Source of the DNA: Candidatus Binatia bacterium
Lineage (GTDB): Bacteria > Desulfobacterota > Binatia > UBA9968 > JAJDTQ01
Length of the DNA: 64,000 nucleotides
NCBI GenBank assembly: GCA_963666515.2
Contig: OY762897.2
Coordinates: 1,760,001 to 1,824,000 of the forward strand
Direction of reading: 5' to 3'
How positions within the stretch are numbered: the first letter of the stretch is position 1; each line of letters begins with the position of its first letter. Made by a program: the position numbers and the translations under genes. The notes below the pieces were generated by a model. It was not told where the DNA came from, made no database searches, and was given only the letters and a program-made list of their open reading frames with translations. Shown here piece by piece: positions 31,573 to 42,878 of the stretch.

Positions 31573-31825
31573 CGGTGATTTCGGCTACAACACCACGGCT
31601 CCGGTCCTTGAGGACGCCACCGACCCCGCACCGGCAATTGGGTAAACCCGCTCTATCGTCCGACCAATCTACTCCATCACTCGATGTACACAGCACTACC
31701 CAATTGGACGCGACCGTCATGGCGCGGAAGAATAGGATGACACCCACCGCTTGGCACGATCCGCCTTCTTTCCAGCATCGAAACAATGTGAATGTGCCGT
31801 TCACGCGCGAAGCAGGAGGACAGAC

Positions 31826-33877
31826 ATGGAGGCAACCAGCCGGAGGCCTCTGAGTCCGGCCTTCCGCATGGCCCTCCTTGCGGGGACAATCGCGTCGGTC
31901 CGCTTGCACCTGCGCTCAGGCGGAGATGTCAATGCAGCCGACGAGAGGGGCCGTTCGCCACTGATTCTGGCAGCTTCCAAGGGGCGTATCGATCTTTGCC
32001 AACTCCTGCTGGACGAAGGCGCTGATCCGGATCTCCGTGATCACGCGGGCAACGATGCACTAGCCGTGGCCCAAGCACAAGGCCAGACCGAGATCGCTTC
32101 TCTCCTGGTTCCTGCGGCAACGACAACAGCGAGACTGCAAGCCGTAAACGTTAGTGGACAGACCCCAACTTCGCCGGATGACCCCGTTGTAGACCTGTTT
32201 GACTGGCAGGAAGACATCGAGGAGCCGCCTCCGCCGGATAATCCGTCCTGTGTCAATGACGCGGTGGTTCTCCAAGATTTCATCTCCCAGCACGTCCCCC
32301 TCGACAAGGATCCCGGTTGGGGCGACATAGAAATCGACCTGCCGGAGCCACAGGAACTTGTCCCCGGGCGCACACCCTTCACAGACGACCAGGAGGACTC
32401 GTTGCGCCTGCTGTTTGTGGAGGCGTTAAGGGACGGGCGTGTTCACGAGGATCGTATCGCTGAAGTCCTTGGCGGCACCGCAGATGAAGACGATCCACGG
32501 GAGTCAATACTGATTACCAGTCTACGCCATATCCTTGCCGACCTTGGGACCGAGATCGACGACGGTGCCCAAGCCCTGGACGTCGTGCGCGACGCAGACG
32601 AGGGCGACCAGGAAAGATACGGCGACGCCGCGGCCGAGGCTCTATCCTTTCTCCGGCTCTGCCAATCCAGCGATACCGATCCTTTCTACCGCTACGCCAA
32701 GGACTTGCCCACGGATCGCCTGACCCGCGATGATGAAGTAGCGCTTGGGGAGACAATCGAGCAAGGCATGATGGAGGTACTTGCCACGTTGAGTGCGAGC
32801 CCCGCCGTCGTCGCACGGCTTCGCGCAGATTCCAAGGCAATTCTTCGCGGCGATATTCAGTTGCGAATGATGCTCGAATCTCCTGTTGGGGAAGGAGGAC
32901 TCGGCGAAAACGATCCCGCTGACGCACTCGGGGACGACGTCCAGACCGATGAGTCATCCGATGTCGCGACTTCCACTCCCCAGATGGCTGCTGGGAGTAT
33001 CGACCATCTGAACTCGATCATCGCGGCTTGCCGACGCGGTATTGAGGGGCAAGCGGAACTCGTAAAGTGCCTTCTCCTTGCCGGCATTGCCCCTTCTTAT
33101 CTGGCCGACCTTCAGGAGATTGCCTTGGAGCATGACCTTGACGGGAACCTCCGGAAACGCATCCACGCGGGCCGTGCAAAAGCGGAGGCGGCCCGGAGAC
33201 GTTTGGTCGAAACGAATCTCCGACTGGTGATCTGGGTCGCCAAGAAGCATGGCGGACTCACGCTCATGGACAGGATCCAGGCAGGGAATATTGGTCTCAT
33301 GCGCGCTACTGAAAGCTTCAACCATCGACAAGGCACTAGATTCTCTACCTACGCCGTTTTCTGGATCAGGCAAGCGATCAACCGCACGGTGGCGGACACC
33401 GGAAGAATCATCCGTCTCCCAGTCCATGTCCACGAGACAATAAACAGGATAAATAAGGCCCGGAAAACGGCAAGGGCCGCAACCGGCCAAGAACCCGATG
33501 TCGACAAGTTGGCAGAGATTGTGGAACTCTCACCAGAGCGAATCAGAGATATTCTCACGGCCTCCGAGGAAGTGGTTCCGTTGGAGGATGTGTGGCAAAC
33601 GGTCGCAGAATTTCCCGATCAGACCGTGCAGACACCGGAGATTCACCTATCCGTCAACGAGATGAGACACCTGACTCGAAACTGTCTGGCTACCCTGGCT
33701 CCAAGGGAAGAGGCCGTGATCCGCCGCCGGTTCGGCATCGGCTGTGACGAACAGACGCTGGAGGTAATCGGCCAGTCCTATGGTCTCACGCGGGAACGCA
33801 TTCGGCAGATCGAGGCAAAGGCAATGCAGAAGCTCATGCGCGCCAGACGTCTCAGACTCTTACAAGGTGTCGGCTGA
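31826..33877 (+). CDS. mzaA: Ankyrin-repeat / sigma-70 fusion protein of the Mza defence system
   Basis: AGGAGG SD; ankyrin GGDVNAADERGRSPLILAA; sigma regions LVETNLRLVIWVAKK, FSTYAVFWIRQAI, IRLPVH, TLEVIGQSYGLTRERIRQIE. Confidence 0.88.
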   Translation: MEATSRRPLSPAFRMALLAGTIASVRLHLRSGGDVNAADERGRSPLILAASKGRIDLCQLLLDEGADPDLRDHAGNDALAVAQAQGQTEIASLLVPAATTTARLQAVNVSGQTPTSPDDPVVDLFDWQEDIEEPPPPDNPSCVNDAVVLQDFISQHVPLDKDPGWGDIEIDLPEPQELVPGRTPFTDDQEDSLRLLFVEALRDGRVHEDRIAEVLGGTADEDDPRESILITSLRHILADLGTEIDDGAQALDVVRDADEGDQERYGDAAAEALSFLRLCQSSDTDPFYRYAKDLPTDRLTRDDEVALGETIEQGMMEVLATLSASPAVVARLRADSKAILRGDIQLRMMLESPVGEGGLGENDPADALGDDVQTDESSDVATSTPQMAAGSIDHLNSIIAACRRGIEGQAELVKCLLLAGIAPSYLADLQEIALEHDLDGNLRKRIHAGRAKAEAARRRLVETNLRLVIWVAKKHGGLTLMDRIQAGNIGLMRATESFNHRQGTRFSTYAVFWIRQAINRTVADTGRIIRLPVHVHETINRINKARKTARAATGQEPDVDKLAEIVELSPERIRDILTASEEVVPLEDVWQTVAEFPDQTVQTPEIHLSVNEMRHLTRNCLATLAPREEAVIRRRFGIGCDEQTLEVIGQSYGLTRERIRQIEAKAMQKLMRARRLRLLQGVG

Positions 33878-35421
33878 TGGTGGCCAATTTCTCCGAGACA
33901 CGACTACCCGGTTCGCGTCTTGCCCCTCCCCGCCCCTCCGCCATGATTGAGGCTCTGCGCGGGCTCGGCTACTCCGCAGCGACCGCAGTTGCGGACATCA
34001 TCGACAACAGTATCTCTGCCAGTGCCAAGGCGGTAACACTGGAATTCGCATGGGCCGGCGAGACCAGCCATGTGTCGATCTTGGATGACGGGCGAGGCAT
34101 GGACGGGCAGGAGATGGACGCGGCGATGCGACTCGGCGAGCGGAGCCCACTTGACGCACGCGCGGCGAGCGACCTCGGGCGTTTTGGTCTCGGGCTCAAG
34201 ACGGCTTCCTTCTCGCAGTGCCGGCGGTTGACCGTTGCAAGTATCCGGGGCGAGCGTATGAACTGCCTGCGCTGGGACCTCGATGTGCTCTCAGCGTGTG
34301 CGGATGACGGGTGGTATCTCCTTGAAGGCCCGGCGGCGGGGTCGGAGCATTTGCTGCAGCCGCTGCTTTCAGCCGGTCGTGGAACGCTGGTCGTCTGGGA
34401 GCGTCTTGACCGGATCGTTACACCCGGTTCCGACGAGCAAGACTTCCTTGACCTTATTGATGGCGTGGAGCGACATCTCGCCATGGTGTTCCACCGCTAT
34501 CTCGATGGCGAGTGTGCGGGTTTGCAACTGGCTATCAATGGGCGTCCGTTGAAGGCCTGGGACCCGTTCCTTCGTAACCATCCGGCAACTTGGTCCTCCC
34601 CTGTCGAAAAGATCCGCTCTGAGGCCGGTACGGTGGAGGTGCAGTGTCACGTTCTGCCACATAAGGATCACCTCTCGGCTCAGCAGGAGTCGTCGGCGGC
34701 CGGCCCGCATGGGTGGACTGTACAGCAAGGATTTTATGTCTACCGCAACCTCAGGCTGCTCTTGGCGGGAAGCTGGCTTGGTCTTGGACAGGGTCGCTCC
34801 TGGACCAAGGAAGAGGCACATCGTCTGGCCCGGTTGCGGCTCGATATTCCCAATTCTGCTGATGCGGCGTGGAAGATCGACATCAGGAAATCAACTGCCA
34901 GTCCACCGCCAGCCCTCAAGGCGCATCTGACCAAGCTTTCAGAGGAGACACGGGCGCGAGCGCGCCGTGTGTTTGCCAACCGGGGACAACCGGTTGCCAT
35001 CGACCCTGGCCAGCCTGTGGTCCAGGCTTGGCGCGCCGAACATGCGACAGTTGGCATCCGATACAGAATCGACCGCGACCATCCCGCCGTGCGATCAGTT
35101 CTCGACGATGCAGGCAACATTGCCGCACCTGTTCAAGCTATGCTGCGGGTGATCGAGGAGACGGTGCCCATACAGCGCATCTGGCTCGACACCACCGAGG
35201 GACAAGAGACACCCCGGACAAATTTCGCCGGTGAGCCCTCTTCGGAAGTACGCAAGGTCCTTATGGTGATGTTCCGTAATCTGGTTCTGCGCAAGAACAT
35301 GTCGCCACATCTCGCACGGCAACGGCTTCTTCAAACAGAGCCGTTCAACAATTACCACGATCTCATCGCCTCACTGCCCGATGATCCACACCCAGGAGAA
35401 CCGGATGGCGTCCACGACTGA
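33877..35421 (+). CDS. mzaB: GHKL (MutL/MORC-like) ATPase of the Mza system
   Basis: ADIIDNSI, DDGRGM, DLGRFGLGLKTAS, GTLVVW; translationally coupled (TGATG). Confidence 0.88.
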   Translation: MVANFSETRLPGSRLAPPRPSAMIEALRGLGYSAATAVADIIDNSISASAKAVTLEFAWAGETSHVSILDDGRGMDGQEMDAAMRLGERSPLDARAASDLGRFGLGLKTASFSQCRRLTVASIRGERMNCLRWDLDVLSACADDGWYLLEGPAAGSEHLLQPLLSAGRGTLVVWERLDRIVTPGSDEQDFLDLIDGVERHLAMVFHRYLDGECAGLQLAINGRPLKAWDPFLRNHPATWSSPVEKIRSEAGTVEVQCHVLPHKDHLSAQQESSAAGPHGWTVQQGFYVYRNLRLLLAGSWLGLGQGRSWTKEEAHRLARLRLDIPNSADAAWKIDIRKSTASPPPALKAHLTKLSEETRARARRVFANRGQPVAIDPGQPVVQAWRAEHATVGIRYRIDRDHPAVRSVLDDAGNIAAPVQAMLRVIEETVPIQRIWLDTTEGQETPRTNFAGEPSSEVRKVLMVMFRNLVLRKNMSPHLARQRLLQTEPFNNYHDLIASLPDDPHPGEPDGVHD

Positions 35422-36399
35422 CCAACGGGTAATCAAGCTCGTTCAGGAACTCCTCCTCGATGAGGAAAACAGGGCAGCAGTTACACCTGCTGTAATCGGT
35501 GAGAAAATCGAGCTTGTACTCACCATGAACCCGAGATGGCGCGATGGGCTTGACAAACAGGCGATTACGGATGAACTCATCCGCCGGTTCAGCCTCTGGA
35601 TCGGCCAAGACACTACCCTCCAAAGCACCGCGGGCCACAAGGATTGGCTGACAACGGCCCGCAAGCAGGATTGGCGATACTGGCAGCGCTATCGCGAATG
35701 GCTGGAGCGAGACCTGTCCTTCAAGGTCGTCGAAGGACTTGACCGGTCCACGGATTCCGTTCTCGCCTTACTGGAGGACCCCAGACGCGAGGGAACGTGG
35801 GACCGTCGGGGGTTGGTGGTGGGGCACGTCCAATCCGGCAAGACAGGCCACTACAGCGGCCTCATCTGCAAGGCTGCCGATGCCGGCTACAAGATCGTCA
35901 TCGTGTTGGCGGGTTTACACAACAATCTGCGTTCACAGACACAAATGCGTCTCGATGAAGCATTCCTCGGCTACGAGACAAGCGCCTTCAATGACGAGGC
36001 TTTGGTACCCTTCGGCGTCGGGGAAATTGATGCGGACCCCGACATACGGCCAAACTATGCGACCAACCGCACGGAGAAAGGGGATTTCAACACGCGAGTC
36101 GCAAGGAATTTCGGCATCACCCCTGAAAAGCGCCCCTGGCTCTTTGTCGTGAAAAAGAACAAATCCGTCCTTACGCGGTTGCTTGACTGGCTACGCAATC
36201 ACGTCGCCAACTCCCAAGATCAAGAGACGGGTCGGCGAATAGTCACCAATCTGCCACTCCTCCTCATAGATGACGAGGCCGACCACGCTAGAATCCTTGA
36301 TCGACAGGATCTTGACTCAGGAAGACAAGATATTTGAACTGGACTTCGTTCGTACATGAATACTATCGTAGGCCATCGCGAGTTGTAACGCTCGGTAGT

Positions 36400-38007
36400 T
36401 TAAGCGACGAGCTTCGCCTCATCGCAAATGGCATCGAGGTTCCTGGTGATGGCGGCAAAGCGCCGATGGGTCTTGGTATTGCCGCTCACGGCGTCGGGCG
36501 CAAGATGGGCCAGGCCGGGGCGAAGGATGCGGTTGTAGACACGCGTGTAGAACATCGCCACCTTGAGGCCGTGTTCGGTCAAGTGGTAGCGGTAGGCGCC
36601 GGGGATGCGCTCGATCAGGCCGTGCAGGCGCAGGCGTCTCAGGTCGTAACTCATTCGGCCCGGGCGCATTGGACTGGGATCGAGGCCCAGGAGTGCACCG
36701 AGGTGCCCGCGCAGGTCGCGGTTGGAGAAGCCGCGGGCCGAAAGAGTGAACAAGAGCAGGGCCTGCATCAGAGCCTGCACGCGCTCATCGGCGAAGCGCA
36801 GGGCCGAGGCGCGTTGTCCGTGGAACTCCAGGCCGCGTTGATGGCGTTGGAGTTCGTCTTCACCCAGGGCACAGTCGTGGCTGATGGTTTCTATCTGCAA
36901 CAGACGACGGTTGGCTGTGAAGCCGACCTGGCACAACGCCGCCAGGTTAGACAGCCGCCGGCCCAGGGCGAAGTCATAGGTGTCGTTGACGGTGGTCTCG
37001 GTGCGCAGCGCCTGCCCTTCCTTGTGGTACTGCTTGATGCGCGAGTGCTTGTAGTCCACGTGCAAGGAAGGGGTGACGCCTGCGGTGATGACCCGGGTAC
37101 GGAACCGACCGGGGGTGCGCCGGGTGACCCGGCGCTGGAAGATCAACTGCACCTGGCTGGGGCGACCGAGATCGAGGTTCTCGCGGATCACGTCCTCGAA
37201 AAAGACGCGGCCCGAGGCCGGGCGGTCGAGCACCTGGGTCAGGCTGAACTCCGCTTGCAGGATGGAGATGTCGTAGCGCAGACCGGCGCGACGGTCCTGA
37301 GGCGTATACGGATGCGGCAGGCGATCGAACCACTTGCGCGCCAGTCTGTCGATGAAAGCGGCATCGAAGCCTTCGCAGATCTGTTGCAGCGCCTCGGGGT
37401 CTCCGCAGCAGCGCACGCCGTTGTCCAAAGCCTCGAACGGGATGCCGCGCTCGCGCAACTGGCACTTGGCGTACTCGTTGCCGTTGAGGCACAGCTTGCC
37501 GTTGTACGGGAAGTAGGTGCAGAACTTGATGAAGAACGGCCCCGCCTGTTTGTCCACGCAATAGAAATACACATGGTTGACCATCGCGGTAGACGAGACC
37601 ACCCACGGATAGGTGACCCCGGTGTCCGGGTTCCGGCGCCGCTCGGTGCGCATCACACGGGCCTTCTCCTGCGCTATCCCGATGTACAAAACCCCTTCGG
37701 TTCCCTTGAACCGCCCCAGGTACTCCTGCGTCACCTCGTCCTTGCGCTGGCCCTTCTTGAAGTGCACCACCTCGATCTGCTCCCGCTCCGCAAAGTCCTT
37801 CACCGCCTGCACGAACTCCCGACTCTTGGGCGCCAGCGCCACCGTCGACGCAAACCGCTGGCCATGGTGCTTGTGCAGATACCCCACTACCCCGCCCACG
37901 CTCTGCAACTGCGGCACATACAGGTTCAAGTACAGGCGATCCACCGACTCGTATTCCAGCGTCACGTGATCGCGCAATACTTCCGCTACGGTTTGTGGTA
38001 GGCTCAT
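36400..38007 (-). CDS. Putative transposase/Rep-like protein (535 aa) with C-terminal winged HTH
   Basis: Only credible ORF in the element; GGAG SD; RIKQYHK...LRTETT motif; YDLRRLRLHGLIERIPGAYRYHLT wHTH-like tail; no HUH motif or recognisable DDE motif. Confidence 0.75.
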   Translation of the reverse strand: MSLPQTVAEVLRDHVTLEYESVDRLYLNLYVPQLQSVGGVVGYLHKHHGQRFASTVALAPKSREFVQAVKDFAEREQIEVVHFKKGQRKDEVTQEYLGRFKGTEGVLYIGIAQEKARVMRTERRRNPDTGVTYPWVVSSTAMVNHVYFYCVDKQAGPFFIKFCTYFPYNGKLCLNGNEYAKCQLRERGIPFEALDNGVRCCGDPEALQQICEGFDAAFIDRLARKWFDRLPHPYTPQDRRAGLRYDISILQAEFSLTQVLDRPASGRVFFEDVIRENLDLGRPSQVQLIFQRRVTRRTPGRFRTRVITAGVTPSLHVDYKHSRIKQYHKEGQALRTETTVNDTYDFALGRRLSNLAALCQVGFTANRRLLQIETISHDCALGEDELQRHQRGLEFHGQRASALRFADERVQALMQALLLFTLSARGFSNRDLRGHLGALLGLDPSPMRPGRMSYDLRRLRLHGLIERIPGAYRYHLTEHGLKVAMFYTRVYNRILRPGLAHLAPDAVSGNTKTHRRFAAITRNLDAICDEAKLVA

Positions 38008-38011
38008 GTCC

Positions 38012-38153
38012 GGCTCCGGTTGCTTCGGGCTTTTATGCCCATTTGACCCTTTGAGGTCCGACCTTGCAAGGTCCCATGACCAGGGATTCAATCCCTGCTA
38101 CAAGCGACCGGAGCCAATCCCCTTACCCCCTCGTCGGTCTGAGGCGAAGCCTC
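38012..38153. other. Structured non-coding end of the element (cloverleaf plus terminal mini-hairpin)
   Basis: Outer stem 38012-38025/38102-38115 encloses four hairpins; GAGGC-GAA-GCCTC at 38141-38153. Confidence 0.75.
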
Positions 38154-40071
38154 GCTAGTGTTGATACGCGGGAAATCCTGGTGGACGAGAGTGGCAGGCC
38201 AGACGATGAGCATGAGCCTACAGCCATCAATCGGCTCGTCCGCCGAGTCCTGCACGTTTTCTCACGCGCAGCCTATGTCGGATATACGGCGACCCCCTTC
38301 GCAAACATCTTCATACACGAACAGGCATCCACTCGTAACGAGGGTGCCGACCTCTTCCCCGCCGCCTTTGTCATCAACCTTGCAGCCCCCTCCAACTACA
38401 TCGGTCCGTCAAAAGTGTTCGGCGCTCGCACGGAGTTGGATCGCAGCGACGCACTGCCGTTGGTACGACTCGTGGCGGATTTCGATGGATGGATGCCCAC
38501 CAAACACAAGAACGGCCATGTCCCACTATACGAAGGCAGAAGCGAGTTGCCCCCATCGCTGAACGAGGCCATCGACTCCTTCATCCTCGCCTGTGCCTTG
38601 CGGCGACTGCGTGGACAGGAAACGGCGCACTGCTCGATGCTCGTCCATGTTACCCGCTACACTTCCGTCCAGGCACTTGTTCATGCCCAGGTAGAAGAGC
38701 GTGTCCACCATATACACCAGAGACTGTATCGCAGAACGGGAGGACACGAGGCGATCCTTTCGTCCTTGCGGTCACTCTGGGAGCAGGATTTCGCCCCGAC
38801 CACGGCGGCCATGGCCAAGTTAATGCCTGATGAGTTGGCCCATGGCACAACGACCTGGGAGCATATCGAGCCACACTTGGTGGAGACAGTTGCCGACATC
38901 CAGGTACGTATGATCAATGGTACTGCCAAGGATGCACTGGACTACGCCGAGAATCAGGAGACCGGGCTGAAGGTCATCGCCATCGGCGGCGACAAGCTGG
39001 CACGCGGACTCACCCTGGAAGGGTTAACCGTAAGCTACTTCCTGCGCGCCACGAAGATGTACGACACACTGATGCAAATGGGACGTTGGTTCGGCTACCG
39101 GCCTGGTTATTTGGATCTTGGCCGCCTCTATACGACAGGCGAGCTGGTCGATTGGTTCGAGCACATCGCCGACGCTTCAGAAGAGTTGCGAGAGGAATTC
39201 GATTTCATGGCAGCGAGCGGTGCCACGCCACGCGAGTACGGTCTCAAGGTCCAGTCACATCCAGTACTGATGGTGACTTCCAGCATCAAGATGCGGACCG
39301 CCCGTGAGCTCGAATTGTCGTTCAGCGGCGGCCTTTCTGAAACCGTCAACTTCCACCGTGAGGCTTCAATTCTGCGCCAAAATCTTGACACGGCGCGGCG
39401 CTTCTTCTCAACGCTCAACACGCCGGAACGCAACCCCAGGCGTCGTCGCAACGGCGCGGAGCACGCATGGCGTGGGCTTCTATGGACAGATGTTCCCGTC
39501 GACAATGTGCTCAGTTTCTTGGAGGACTACCGCAGCCATCCAGAAGCCAGAAAGGCAAACGGCTTGCTGCTAGCCCAATTCATTCGTTCTCTTGTCGCAC
39601 GGAAGGAACTGACACGCTGGACCGTAGCTCTGATCGGCGGCGGCGAGGGCAAGACCATTTCGCTCGGTGAAGAAGTCTCCGTCGAGATGTTGCAGCGCGC
39701 TGCCCACGGACAGCACCTGGATCGCTACTCCATTCGGCGTCTCATGTCTCCGCGTGACGAAACGATCGACCTCGACGAGACGGCATGGTTGGCTGCGCTT
39801 GACGAAACGCGTCAGGCCTTTCACGCCGATCCCGCCCGCAACGGAACACGAGAGGAGCCAACCGTCCCTAATGGCCCGGCGATCCGGAAGATTCGCCCCA
39901 AGGAGCGGGGCGTTCTGTTCGTCTATGCCATCGATCCGGCTCTCGCCGGTCCTAATGCTGGTTTACCCGCAGATTCGCCGCCCGTCATCGGTTGGGCTGT
40001 CAGCTTCCCTGCAAGCAATTCTGGCGTGCGCGTGAAGTATCGCGTCAACAACATCTACTGGGACCAGGAAT

Positions 40072-41087
40072 ATGGCGGCGCGAACTGACATGGATGACCT
40101 GGACGCGGCATGGCGCGCCCTCCTCGGCAGTTCGGAGGGCGAAGGTGGAAAACTATTCCAATCACCAGCAGCGGGCCGTGCTCTTTGCTTGCCGGCCGGC
40201 ACTTCCCTGGCGACAAGGAAGCCCTGCTCGTCGGCTTCAGCGATATCCGGGCGATTCCGGAATCCCACCTGCCGCAAGGGAACGGCTTCGAGGTCGCTTG
40301 TCTCACCACCGACCCTACAGGAGGTGATCATTTATGGGTGGCGCTTGCCCGCAGGACAGACGGAAGCCGGGAAATCTTCGCGATGATGGCGAAGGACCTG
40401 CTTGCACTGCTTGATAAAGGGGCACCCAGCGAGCAGGGCATGCTTCGCGGGTTCCTGTCACGTGTCCGTGCTTGGCAGGAATTCATGGACCGACACAGGG
40501 AGGGGGTACTCTCTCCCGACGCAGAACTCGGCCTGTTTGGCGAACTGATCGTAATCGACCGCTTTATTGATGCAGGGATACCGGAGAAACACGTCATAGA
40601 CGCTTGGCAGGGACCGCTCGACGGACTGCAGGATTTTTCGCTGGGCGGTGGTGGTATCGAGGTAAAGAGCACGTTATCAGCGAGAGGATTCGTCGCGACC
40701 ATTTCCTCCCTCGAACAGCTCGACGACAGCCTGTGCCAGCCACTATTCCTCGCGGCGGTGCGAATCCGCCTCGACACGACAGGCCTTACCCTGCCTGCAA
40801 TGTCCAACGCGATCCGAGAAAGGCTGCGAGACAACGTGGCGACACTCGACCTTTTTGAGGCACGCCTTATGCAAGCAGGGTTCCTGCGTGCCGCAACGGA
40901 GCGCTACACGCGACAATTTCGTCACGTTTCCACTGCTTTCCTTGCCGTGGACGACAATTTTCCGCGCCTCACGCGAGCAAACGTCGATCCCGCGATTAGG
41001 CGGGCTCGCTATGAGGTCAATCTTGAGATGGCCGGAGCGCCCGATGTCGGTCTTGCACATGCGCTTGAAGCTTTGGGGATGATCTGA
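40072..41087 (+). pseudogene. mzaD: DUF4420 PD-(D/E)XK motif protein of the Mza system, 1-nt frameshift near 40146
   Basis: MAARTDMDDLDAAWRALLGSSEGEG continues as WKTIPIT in another frame (GAAGGTGG, one base short); ELGLFGEL, WQGP...QDF...IEVKST, ISSLEQLD. Confidence 0.8.
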
Positions 41088-42878
41088 ATGGAATTGAACG
41101 AATTTCTACTACAAACGCGGGCTGAGGTGAAAGAGGCCATTGCAGACCGCCTCCCTGTACCGAACAGCCCCTATCCTTACGAGGAAACAATCTTCACCGA
41201 GGTGGTCATGGAGCACATGTCCCAGATCGGCATGACCTTCGAACCGGAGCCGTGCCACTACTCGGCCACCGTTGGCAATGCACGGCTGCGCCTCAGCGGT
41301 TACGCGGTCTCCGAGGACGCCGATCAGCTTGACCTGTTCGTGAGTCTTTACGAGGGCGTCGAGAGTGTTACCTCGATCCCCGATTCGGAGACAAAAACTG
41401 CTGCCGCTCAGTGCCTGCGTTTCCTGAAGCGCTGCGCAGAGGGGCGGCTCGCCGGAACCATGGATCAATCCAACGACGCCTATCCCGTCGTGCACACCAT
41501 CCAGGATGTCTATCCGCAACTCGATCAGATCCGCATCTATGTACTGACCGACCGCCAAGCCAAAGCAAAAAACTTCAAGACCCGAGAGGTACACGACAAG
41601 ACCGTCAAGCTGGAGGTCATGGACATTGAGCGCCTCTGCCGGCACTGGTCAGAAGGAAAGCCACGAGACGAACTCATAATCAATTTTCAGGAAGTATCGG
41701 GCGGCGCACTTCCCTGCGTCTATGTGCCCGGCGAGACGGCTGACTACGACTACGCCCTGACCGCCATTCCCGGCGAGGCCCTGCGTTTCATCTACGAGAA
41801 GTACGGCGCACGATTGCTGGAGGCCAATGTCCGCTCCTTCCTCAGTGCCAGCGGGAAGGTGAATAAGGGTATCAGCGAGACACTGCGAAGGGCACCCGAC
41901 CGCTTCATGGCTTACAACAACGGCATCGTCCTCGTCGCGGACGAAATGCGCATGGGGTCGGCCGAAAACGGCGCACCAGGCATCCTCTGGCTCAAGGGCA
42001 TGAACATCGTCAATGGCGGCCAAACCACGGCGTCGCTCTATTTCACAAAAAAGAGGGTTCCAGATACGGACCTCCGCCGTGTCCGGGTTCCGGCCAAGAT
42101 CATCGTGTTGCACTCCGATGATCCTGCAGGAGAAGAGGGCCTGATCTCCGACATATCGAAATACGCCAACAGTCAAAACTCGGTGCGATTATCTGATCTG
42201 TCGGCAAACAGGCCCTTTCATATCGAAGTCGAGAAGCTTTCTCTCACCGTCTATTGTCCAGATGGCGTGGGACGATGGTTTTACGAACGGGCTGCTGGCA
42301 GCTACAAGACCATGTTAACGCGCGAGGGCACGACCCCGGCAAAGCTTCGCAAATTGAAAGCCGACCTTCCCTCATCTCGCAAGATCATCAAGACGGATTT
42401 GGCCAAATTTCTCAATGCCTGGGAACGCAAACCCCACTATGTCAGCCTGGGCGCACAGAAAAATTTTGAGCGCTTCATGGATGATTTCGCGGCTGGGGAT
42501 GCACAACAAGAGAGACCACTGCCAAGTGTTACCGACTGGAAGCACATGGTTGCCAAGGCGATCATCTTCAAGACAGCACACAAACTGATCCGCCCCATGT
42601 TCCCGGCCTTCCAGGCCAACGTTACCGCCTATACCGTATCCGTCCTGTCCGAGCGCATCGGTGACAAGCTGGACCTCGACAGGGTGTGGCAACGCCAAGC
42701 TATTTCAGAACGGCTCCAAGAACAAATCCAGGTGTGGGCGAGAGAAGTGAACGACACGCTTCACCGCAACGCCGAAGGGCGGATGATTTCCGAATGGGCC
42801 AAGAAGGCTGAATGCTGGCAGGCCGTGCGCACAAGCCTCCTTTCCAAACCGTTGGCCAGCATACCCGAACTGGCTTGA
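41088..42878 (+). CDS. mzaE: AIPR family protein of the Mza system
   Basis: LLEANVRSFL, FMAYNNGI, IVNGGQTTASL, ISKYANSQN. Confidence 0.9.
   Translation: MELNEFLLQTRAEVKEAIADRLPVPNSPYPYEETIFTEVVMEHMSQIGMTFEPEPCHYSATVGNARLRLSGYAVSEDADQLDLFVSLYEGVESVTSIPDSETKTAAAQCLRFLKRCAEGRLAGTMDQSNDAYPVVHTIQDVYPQLDQIRIYVLTDRQAKAKNFKTREVHDKTVKLEVMDIERLCRHWSEGKPRDELIINFQEVSGGALPCVYVPGETADYDYALTAIPGEALRFIYEKYGARLLEANVRSFLSASGKVNKGISETLRRAPDRFMAYNNGIVLVADEMRMGSAENGAPGILWLKGMNIVNGGQTTASLYFTKKRVPDTDLRRVRVPAKIIVLHSDDPAGEEGLISDISKYANSQNSVRLSDLSANRPFHIEVEKLSLTVYCPDGVGRWFYERAAGSYKTMLTREGTTPAKLRKLKADLPSSRKIIKTDLAKFLNAWERKPHYVSLGAQKNFERFMDDFAAGDAQQERPLPSVTDWKHMVAKAIIFKTAHKLIRPMFPAFQANVTAYTVSVLSERIGDKLDLDRVWQRQAISERLQEQIQVWAREVNDTLHRNAEGRMISEWAKKAECWQAVRTSLLSKPLASIPELA

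Follow-up and report, generated by a model that had tools for sequence, protein, structure and literature searches.

A CTAG-targeted insertion sequence in mzaC belongs to a very large, apparently undescribed bacterial superfamily with a candidate Rep_trans-like transposase

Results

An insertion sequence disrupts mzaC

The DNA analyzed here, referred to as the window, is a stretch of 64,000 nucleotides from Candidatus Binatia bacterium (contig OY762897.2, positions 1,760,001 to 1,824,000), in which a 1,863-bp mobile element at 36292-38154, together with one extra CTAG, interrupts mzaC, a gene of an anti-phage defense locus. The original prediction, made from the letters of the window, had described a 1,867-bp segment inside this gene with CGCTAG at both junctions and an intact reading frame after its removal, and these sequence statements check out. 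The segment 36292-38158 starts with AATCCTTGATCG and ends with GAGGCGAAGCCTCG followed by CTAG (sequence read over 36100-38400), CGCTAG occurs at 36286-36291 and at 38153-38158, and the mzaC halves are in frame once the 1,867 bp are taken out. The features of the locus are listed below in window coordinates; the sense strand of the element's gene is the window minus strand.

35381..36291, plus strand: mzaC 5' part (MzaC profile positions 9-297)
36288..36291, no strand: CTAG junction at the element's 3' end in gene orientation (9/9 copies; empty site with one CTAG in the congener G158)
36292..38154, minus strand: insertion element body, 1,863 bp (nine identical copies with different flanks)
36292..36399, minus strand: 3' non-coding end, 108 nt (terminal block TCAAGGATT-CTA and a hairpin at about 36309-36331)
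36400..38007, minus strand: single open reading frame (ORF) of 535 aa plus stop (P0001), putative transposase (ATG at 38007; the only long ORF of interest)
36997..37035, minus strand: motif K325-Q-Y327-H-K...L-R335-T-E337 (K325, Y327, K329, R335 and E337 invariant; beta-hairpin predicted)
37939..37941, minus strand: codon of D23, an invariant Asp on the first beta-strand (putative counterpart of the Rep_trans motif N' Asp)
38008..38154, minus strand: structured 5' leader, 147 nt (folding and RNAalifold)
38141..38153, minus strand: 5'-terminal hairpin GAGGC-TTC-GCCTC in sense orientation (kept in 25/25 aligned leaders)
38155..38158, no strand: CTAG junction at the element's 5' end in gene orientation (9 copies)
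38155..40088, plus strand: mzaC 3' part (MzaC profile positions 298-951; in frame once 1,867 bp are removed)

The host genome (G000; 4.67 Mb, two contigs) carries nine copies of the element that are 100% identical, each encoding the same 535-aa protein. CTAG directly flanks both sides in 9/9 copies, as expected for the CTAG-targeted element that had been proposed, and an alignment of the flanks showed unrelated sequence farther out. The two bases preceding the left CTAG vary among the copies (CG, GA, AA, CA, GA, CC, CA, GA and GA) and CG precedes the right CTAG in all nine. The right-hand CG therefore makes up the last two letters of the element and the left-hand CG is a chance match, so that the letters CGCTAG are indeed present at both junctions but the real repeat is CTAG, which places the element at 36292-38154. 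CTAG is a rare word here: base composition predicts 14,762 occurrences in the 4.66-Mb chromosome and a Markov estimate 5,148, but only 1,197 are present. Chance is therefore ruled out for nine of nine insertions in it. The target-site specificity of the window's element is strictly CTAG.

In the congener G158, mzaC is uninterrupted at the corresponding site (...GACCACGCTAGTGTCGAT...), which has a single CTAG and flanks that are 97% identical. One of the two CTAG copies at the junctions is thus the original target. The generic marks of an insertion sequence (IS) are all present: the ends are defined, identical copies occupy several different sites, a relative has the empty site, and there is one gene. 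The segment is a real, autonomous and recently active IS, the 535-aa ORF of which is presumably its transposase. A comparison of 28 genomes from the host's family, which fall into a single genus, found the protein encoded by the window's own genome only (E<=1e-10); this distribution and the identity of the nine copies indicate recent acquisition followed by a burst of transposition. An intron or homing-endonuclease reading was rejected, as the element lies antisense in mzaC and is present at nine unrelated sites.

The element splits MzaC cleanly between its two PADLOC profile matches (E 1.5e-126 for the 5' fragment and 1.6e-237 for the 3' fragment) and knocks out this component. The complete MzaABCDE anti-phage defense locus spans 31751-42878 of the window with the genes MzaA to MzaE in order, and MzaC is its sole interrupted component; the others match with E values of 5e-60 (MzaA), 7e-198 (MzaB), 1.7e-51 (MzaD) and 1e-240 (MzaE). 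The first gene, which is MzaA-like, matches ankyrin-repeat models as well. With MzaC interrupted, the system has probably lost its activity in the window's strain, while G158 has an intact one.

Elsewhere in the host genome, two adjacent pieces of about 92 nt (G000:C1:2645461-2645643) are 90-92% identical to the interior of the element (query 1275-1367 and 1694-1786) and look like a deleted relic of an older related copy. The second contig of this genome (C2) is 5,333 bp long with 64% G+C.

The two ends are different and the leader is structured

No terminal inverted repeats were found in the element, in agreement with the original prediction. The sole end-related inverted pair is an 11-nt perfect complement (36411-36421 against 38140-38150) that lies 120 nt inside one end and joins the last ORF codons to the 5'-terminal hairpin; by our rough estimate it is about at chance level for its length. 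The ends are asymmetric and bear hairpins. At the 5' end, which reads CTA^G-C-GAGGC-TTC-GCCTC on the sense strand (the caret marks the junction), the hairpin starts 2 nt inside the end and shows covariation, an A-U pair being changed to G-C in 2 of the 25 sequences. The conserved 3' block, TCAAGGATT-CTA in sense orientation, corresponds to 36289-36300 on the window plus strand and is followed by ^G at the junction. In relatives the 3' end is shorter (about 45 nt) and reads CTTGACTCAA-loop-GTCAAGGAAT-CTA.

The 147-nt leader folds as RNA into a four-way structure with a minimum free energy of -65.7 kcal/mol (z = -3.18; 0/200 shuffles equally stable). Its closing stem pairs GGCUCCGGUCG with CGACCGGAGCC (arms 38012-38025 and 38102-38115), and the second arm includes the GGAG Shine-Dalgarno sequence, 6 nt before the ATG. 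RNAalifold analysis of the leader alignment gave 22 consensus pairs, 12 of which are backed by compensatory changes in one or more sequences; these pairs include the anti-Shine-Dalgarno stem, with G-U pairs that can be formed by the sense strand only. By sequestering the ribosome-binding site, the leader most likely acts as a translational control. An Rfam search of 36200-38250 returned just three sub-threshold, chance-level matches, none near or above any family's gathering score, and a sigma-70 promoter scan found 0 sites in 36200-38300.

The protein is predicted to join a TBP-like region to a winged helix

The absence of a match to any named IS or transposase family, asserted in the original prediction, was borne out by searches of Pfam, NCBIfam, PHROGs and PDB sequences, which were all negative for the 535-aa protein. 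The best Pfam match was the sub-threshold AbiEi_4 winged helix (E 0.06); at E<=10, 25 aligned members matched weak winged-helix families only, and a distant member of a second subfamily described below matched HTH_5 above the cut-off. These weak Pfam matches and MarR/ArsR structural matches from Foldseek back the C-terminal winged helix that had been noticed at the outset together with RIKQYHK...LRTETT, which is located at residues 323-339 (about 36991-37041).

The AlphaFold2 models are of good confidence. That of the full-length protein was built with a 25-sequence alignment (predicted local distance difference test score, pLDDT, 83.9; predicted TM-score, pTM, 0.74); for the model of residues 1-380 the values were 88.8 and 0.88. 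The protein models as a double TATA-binding protein (TBP)-like fold at residues of about 1-380, the presumed catalytic region, followed by a helical linker and a MarR/ArsR-type winged helix at about 405-500. The N-terminal region is predicted to form two beta-rich repeats with helices packed on one side, the long strands in the model covering residues 15-30, 105-125, 132-152, 156-163 and 170-175 and, farther along, 246-260, 314-319, 322-329 and 333-340.

Using the full-length model as Foldseek query against the PDB, the Rep_trans initiator 4CIJ ranked 1-3 and 6 (best E 4.3e-3, probability 0.98, TM 0.20/0.36) and MarR/ArsR proteins matched the C-terminus. The domain-only search of the PDB identified archaeal and eukaryotic TBPs (1MP9, E 8.7e-3, probability 0.92, TMt 0.48). 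Against BFVD, the top match was A0A2N9QVX7 (E 4.4e-4, probability 0.99), and viral TATA-binding proteins also matched (E 4e-4 to 1e-3, probability 0.99).

Across 30 sequences from both subfamilies, the invariant residues are D23, R24, E114, Y147, D152, G156, P167, N175, N196, Q251, E253, K325, Y327, K329, R335 and E337, along with three in the winged helix. Y327 is placed on the predicted strand 322-329 and R335 and E337 on the predicted strand 333-340, and the motif of the distant subfamily reads VKVYDK-x5-LRIE. Since they recur at i and i+2 on each strand, the invariant residues should face one side of the modeled sheet. Y327 is the candidate catalytic tyrosine, and a second one could be Y147/Y149, found on the corresponding strand of the first repeat.

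Relatives form a very large and unnamed superfamily

At least 8,000 relatives were found in a 90%-clustered collection, all of them unnamed or labeled hypothetical and none with a precomputed Pfam domain, and their typical contigs of 1.8-2.0 kb are a signature of collapsed repeats. A filter-free HMMER search gave 10,355 clusters at 50% identity (E<=1e-3). A second deep subfamily was reached through a 505-aa relative with 22-27% identity, which gave at least 7,653 matches, with contigs and elements of about 1.6 kb. Record titles of homologous elements include Proteobacteria, Acidobacteria, Actinobacteria, Verrucomicrobia, Myxococcota and Chloroflexi as well as Gemmatimonadetes, Armatimonadetes, Planctomycetes and Spirochaetes. 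Matches were also present in 28 plasmid records from Burkholderia, Paraburkholderia, Caballeronia, Rhodococcus, Mycobacterium, Mycolicibacterium and Bradyrhizobium; the features annotated under them are hypothetical proteins except for one ArsR regulator. A tblastn search of 50,697 phage records gave no match. RefSeq and UniRef members are named hypothetical or uncharacterized, and the clusters closest in the ESM Atlas belong to the family itself and share no Pfam family, with no usable named look-alike for residues 1-380. The element thus belongs to a very large bacterial IS superfamily that is unrecognized by public annotation and apparently undescribed.

One homologous element, on the Burkholderia sp. 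RPE67 plasmid AP014580.1 (hit H31), is itself interrupted by an IS3/IS911-family element. On the sister plasmids of strains YI23 and SFA1 it is intact at the same site.

Some sources call second-subfamily members ArsR or MarR regulators, and the C-terminal winged helix is the only part of the protein that databases recognize, as would be the case if the ORF encoded a DNA-binding regulator only and the segment were moved by an enzyme encoded elsewhere. We give this reading almost no credence. Outside the winged helix there are about 380 conserved residues, among them invariant polar and acidic ones, and thousands of relatives stand alone on collapsed-repeat contigs of 1.6-2.0 kb. Moreover, there is nothing else in the element, and elements with the same ends turn up in unrelated phyla, which makes a shared trans-acting partner unlikely.

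CTA precedes both breaks in two deep subfamilies

For the ends of the first subfamily, 80 loci were taken from one-genome-per-species contigs, whose titles name about ten phyla. Conservation of the ends is strong, and they are asymmetric, with flank-CTA^ACGAGGCnnnGCCTCAGACCGNCGAG... on the 5' side and ...CTTGACTCAA-(about 20 nt)-GTCAAGGAAT-CTA^G-flank on the 3' side. A relaxed pattern located the 5' motif in 65 of the 80 loci, comprising 57 with CTA^A, 1 with CTA^G like the window's element, 6 with CCA^G and 1 with TTA^G; 57 of the 58 relatives with a clean 5' motif thus read CTA^A and not CTA^G. CTAG was present at the expected 3' distance in 53 of the 65 loci and missing from 12, mostly since the contig ends first. 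The median length of the homologous elements is 1,816 bp. The defined ends and empty site anticipated for a genuine element were accordingly both found, the former in these relatives and the latter in G158.

Of 46 unique insertion sites of this subfamily, 36 have A at position -4 before the 5' CTA, 35 have T or A at position -1, and 25 have G as the second base after the 3' CTAG. A locus from Paraburkholderia elongata (L027) has CCAG where CTAG would precede the 5' end, and its two flanks share a similar short sequence, GTGCGGTG.

For the second subfamily, the ends of 80 metagenome loci were analyzed. The hairpins differ (the 5' end has CCGG-N5-CCGG) and the junction rule is identical. The 5' junction is flank-CTA^A in 44 of 55 unique junctions, the remainder having CCA (8), CGA (2) or CTG (1). 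The 3' end reads ...CTA^N in 32 unique junctions from 39 loci, where N is A in 28, T in 2, C in 1 and G in 1; in 2 of the 39 loci examined the 3' motif was not found. On one metagenome contig (L173), three tandem copies of the 3' terminal block GGGACTAA stand at the junction.

Superfamily-wide, CTA directly precedes both breaks on the sense strand, in two deep subfamilies with 22% protein identity. The fourth letter is on one side the first base of the element itself (A, or G in the window's element) and on the other side a target base. Because this letter varies and is not duplicated in every case, the family does not follow a rule of fixed 4-bp CTAG duplication. The choice left by the original prediction between a target duplication and an element end identical to the target is narrowed by these alignments, in which the family-wide shared letters are CTA and not CTAG. 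The junctions would fit either insertion 3' of a target CTA by an element that ends in CTA, or a 2-3-bp duplication at a strongly preferred site. For the CTA^A relatives we infer the target, which may be CTAG or CTA plus any base; 61 genomes of one relative's genus gave no clean empty site, the flanks in G216 being rearranged, and megablast of the Burkholderia plasmid copy returned filled sites only.

A single 110-nt relic (L133; G208:C1:1787560-1787900) joins the first 45 and the last 64 nt of a related element, with a degraded hairpin and the terminal CTAG mutated to TTAG. A miniature inverted-repeat transposable element (MITE)-like derivative was rejected here, as the joined ends are single-copy and degraded; this is a deletion relic and not an amplified family.

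The lack of inverted repeats and the same short core on both sides also recall the logic of IS110, in which a double-stranded circle would undergo conservative site-specific recombination, pairing the CTA core of its junction with a CTA(G) core of the target. The conserved, structured 147-nt leader, which in this account would help as RNA, lies where IS110 encodes its bridge RNA. However, the target specificity extends to only 3-4 nt with a weak flank preference (A at -4 in 36/46 unique sites), which leaves nothing for a guide RNA, and the best conserved leader stem pairs with the Shine-Dalgarno sequence and fits translational control. In addition, no DEDD, serine-recombinase or tyrosine-recombinase match and no Rfam match was found. 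We consider recombination of this type improbable.

In four sequencing runs that contain the element (X1-X4; window 35900-38550), its word depth exceeded that of the flanks about 10-17-fold, which should not be read as a copy number. Several of the loose ends that follow the right CTAG in these runs are flanks of copies known from the assembly. Other contigs join the 5' end of the element to flanks that are not in G000 (two tested), and the element is therefore also present in DNA outside the assembly in those samples.

Discussion

A candidate tyrosine nickase

The best reading of these results, unproven but in our judgment somewhat favored, is that a Rep_trans-like tyrosine nickase drives the element by nicking after CTA and by strand transfer through a 5'-phosphotyrosine. 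The winged helix and the face of the beta-sheet would recognize the two different hairpin-bearing ends. Y327, flanked by the invariant K325, K329, R335 and E337, would nick one strand directly after 5'-CTA, and the acidic residues D23, E114, D152 and E253 on neighboring strands would hold a metal ion. Nicks would be placed at the 5' junction (CTA^A/G-CGAGGC hairpin), at the 3' end (hairpin-N4-5-CTA^) and at the target CTA(G), such that one nick specificity could serve both initiation and termination, as in a rolling-circle initiator. Strand transfer via the 5'-phosphotyrosine intermediate would then move the element, with the outcome of CTA before both junctions, no true inverted repeats and an intact CTAG after loss. 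That the mechanism is a rolling-circle or single-strand one is our inference only.

The sections of PMC13107129 on these enzymes describe a TBP-like fold for Rep_trans proteins. As hallmarks, the corresponding part of PMC5714925 gives a Tyr within the beta-sheet, the motifs N' (D), I (RxD), II (T/SxY/ExG), III (YxKxxE) and IV (W/LxRxE) and a D-D-E metal triad. In an alignment of 20 Rep_trans proteins that we used for comparison, R222-x-Y224-x-K226...R238-x-E240 is invariant. Candidates for three of the motifs can be pointed out in the element's protein, all invariant, namely D23 for N', Y327-x-K329 for III and L-R335-x-E337 for IV; the Tyr-to-Glu spacing is 10 residues in the element's family versus 16 in the Rep_trans alignment. 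The archaeal Rep-Arvir protein is, in the passages of PMC13107129 devoted to it, tied to Rep_trans by structure only and has A0A2N9QVX7 among its TBP-fold matches; it is described as having a TBP-like catalytic domain at its N-terminus, which contains an invariant Tyr and acidic residues, and a MarR-like winged helix after it (PMC13107129).

Several observations weigh against a tyrosine nickase of this kind. Profile comparison by hhalign with the 20-sequence Rep_trans alignment gave probabilities of 6.6%, 4.0% and 5.0%, which are not significant, and repeatedly aligned only F-x-x-L-D-N-G of the family with F-T-R-L-D of Rep_trans. No PF02486 or DUF match was found at E<=10 in the 26 members scanned (25 plus the distant member), and the Rep_trans motifs I (RxD) and II were not locatable in the element's protein. 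The Foldseek E values are all marginal (4e-4 to 1e-2), with low TM-scores and a high root-mean-square deviation; 4CIJ, the top match with the full-length model, is not in the top 50 of the domain-only PDB search, and TBP-like folds are also found in non-nuclease proteins. The junction pattern is equally expected from a 3-bp (CTA) or 2-bp (TA) target duplication at a strongly preferred site. No circle junction, excision joint or empty-site contig was reported in the four runs, which were available as contigs only and are uninformative on rare forms. Finally, 6 of the 9 copies are co-directional with replication, which is no bias, and IS200/IS605-like targeting of single-stranded DNA on the lagging strand is therefore not supported. 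The Rep_trans-fold nickase originally proposed is partly supported, by the predicted TBP-like fold, the rank of 4CIJ in the full-length search and the KxYxK...RxE motif, and finds no backing in a PF02486 or profile-level match. The resemblance to Rep_trans appears real in predicted fold class, motif and architecture, and homology is not demonstrated.

Part of this evidence would suit a new IS family whose enzyme is not a tyrosine nickase. A metal-dependent acidic site (D23, E114, D152, E253 and E337) would then act without a covalent link and leave a short true CTA or TA duplication. The five acidic residues are invariant, both subfamilies have CTA repeated directly at the two junctions, and there is no sequence-level homology to Rep_trans; known DDE families such as IS630 and IS5 also prefer CTAG/YTAR-like sites. 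On the other hand, terminal inverted repeats are absent and the two ends are quite different, no RNase-H-like or other transposase fold was in the top 50 of three Foldseek searches, and the most conserved block is KxYxK...RxE, with the invariant Tyr on a predicted beta-strand. We judge this explanation unlikely, though the most probable of the alternatives.

If the tyrosine-nickase reading is right, transposition has drawn on both classes of rolling-circle nucleases, the HUH enzymes and a second, non-HUH one. The uses of HUH enzymes cover plasmids, phages, relaxases and transposons, and Rep_trans proteins are credited in the relevant sections of PMC5714925 and PMC13107129 with the first three only; the roles given there are plasmid and phage replication and conjugative transfer, and rolling-circle transposition is credited to HUH enzymes alone. 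The element would then stand to Rep_trans as IS91, IS200 and Helitrons stand to HUH Rep proteins, closing an obvious gap with an IS superfamily in at least ten bacterial phyla and more than 10,000 protein clusters at 50% identity. Tentatively, and with some doubt prevailing, we suggest that a TBP-fold, Rep_trans-like tyrosine nuclease drives these elements, which would make them the first transposons of this kind, with a transposase class distinct from DDE, DEDD, HUH and serine/tyrosine recombinases; the novelty would accordingly be placed at the level of the transposase class, on the strength of a presumed chemistry. Whatever the chemistry, the family is very large, multicopy and gene-disrupting, here in a phage-defense gene. 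Current annotation pipelines miss it or label its members ArsR/MarR regulators, and owing to these hypothetical or regulator names, IS annotation, the interpretation of assembly gaps and mobilome statistics miss the family as well. The short fixed cleavage context (CTA) and the compact ends could also suit DNA strand-transfer biochemistry.

Comparison with known systems

With the Rep_trans/MOBT proteins (pT181 RepC, RepD, RepSTK1 4CIJ, CTXphi RstA and Tn916 Orf20), the element's protein shares a putative TBP-like fold, by weak Foldseek matches, an invariant Tyr on a predicted beta-strand, KxYxK followed by RxE in the manner of motifs III/IV and several invariant acidic residues; DNA hairpins adjoin the presumed nick sites in both. 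In contrast to them, it is much larger (535 aa), with helical insertions and the C-terminal winged helix, has no detectable sequence homology and is found in a 1.6-1.9-kb multicopy chromosomal element and not in a plasmid, phage or integrative and conjugative element. Rep-Arvir (DUF7845) is alike in its architecture and in sharing the top BFVD match A0A2N9QVX7, and differs in being archaeal, in serving virus and plasmid replication and in its motif KHYYM, a comparison made with its description in PMC13107129. No Pfam DUF7845 match was found at E<=10 in the 25 aligned family members.

Searches of Pfam and NCBIfam for known transposase classes gave no Y1_Tnp, Y2_Tnp or Rep match for the HUH enzymes (IS91, IS200/IS605, ISCR and Helitron), no match for DDE transposases including IS630 and IS5, no DEDD_Tnp_IS110 or Transposase_20 match for IS110/IS1111, and no serine- or tyrosine-recombinase match; a conserved His-hydrophobic-His (the HUH motif) is absent from the invariant columns. 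IS630/Tc1-mariner and IS5 elements have a CTAG/YTAR-like target preference with TA or CTA(G) repeated at the junctions, but these are DDE enzymes with terminal inverted repeats, and the element has neither. IS110 elements encode a bridge RNA upstream of their gene, at a position like that of the element's leader. No description of an element of the present kind was found in the literature on Rep_trans, transposases or new IS families, a search that did not cover ISfinder, and individual members may be catalogued there as unclassified IS.

IS200/IS605 elements resemble the element in their subterminal hairpins at both ends, their asymmetric ends and their lack of inverted repeats. IS608, of this group, inserts directly 3' of a short fixed sequence, which then flanks one end. 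The element's protein, by contrast, is unrelated and 3-4 times larger, and the element has no TnpB partner and shows no replication-orientation bias in its 9 copies. IS91, ISCR and Helitron elements insert beside a fixed tetranucleotide and have different, ori-like and ter-like ends, the Helitron 3' end being CTRR after a hairpin. Like the element, they have no inverted repeats and no ordinary target duplication, as stated for IS91 in the part of PMC5714925 that treats it. Their difference lies in the enzyme, as the element's protein has no HUH, Y1/Y2 or Rep_1/Rep_2 match and no helicase domain, and its candidate Tyr is predicted on a beta-strand and not on a helix. By analogy of ends and target, with those of the known groups taken from general background, the element would appear to work most like IS91, IS200/IS605 and Helitrons, all of which use HUH enzymes.

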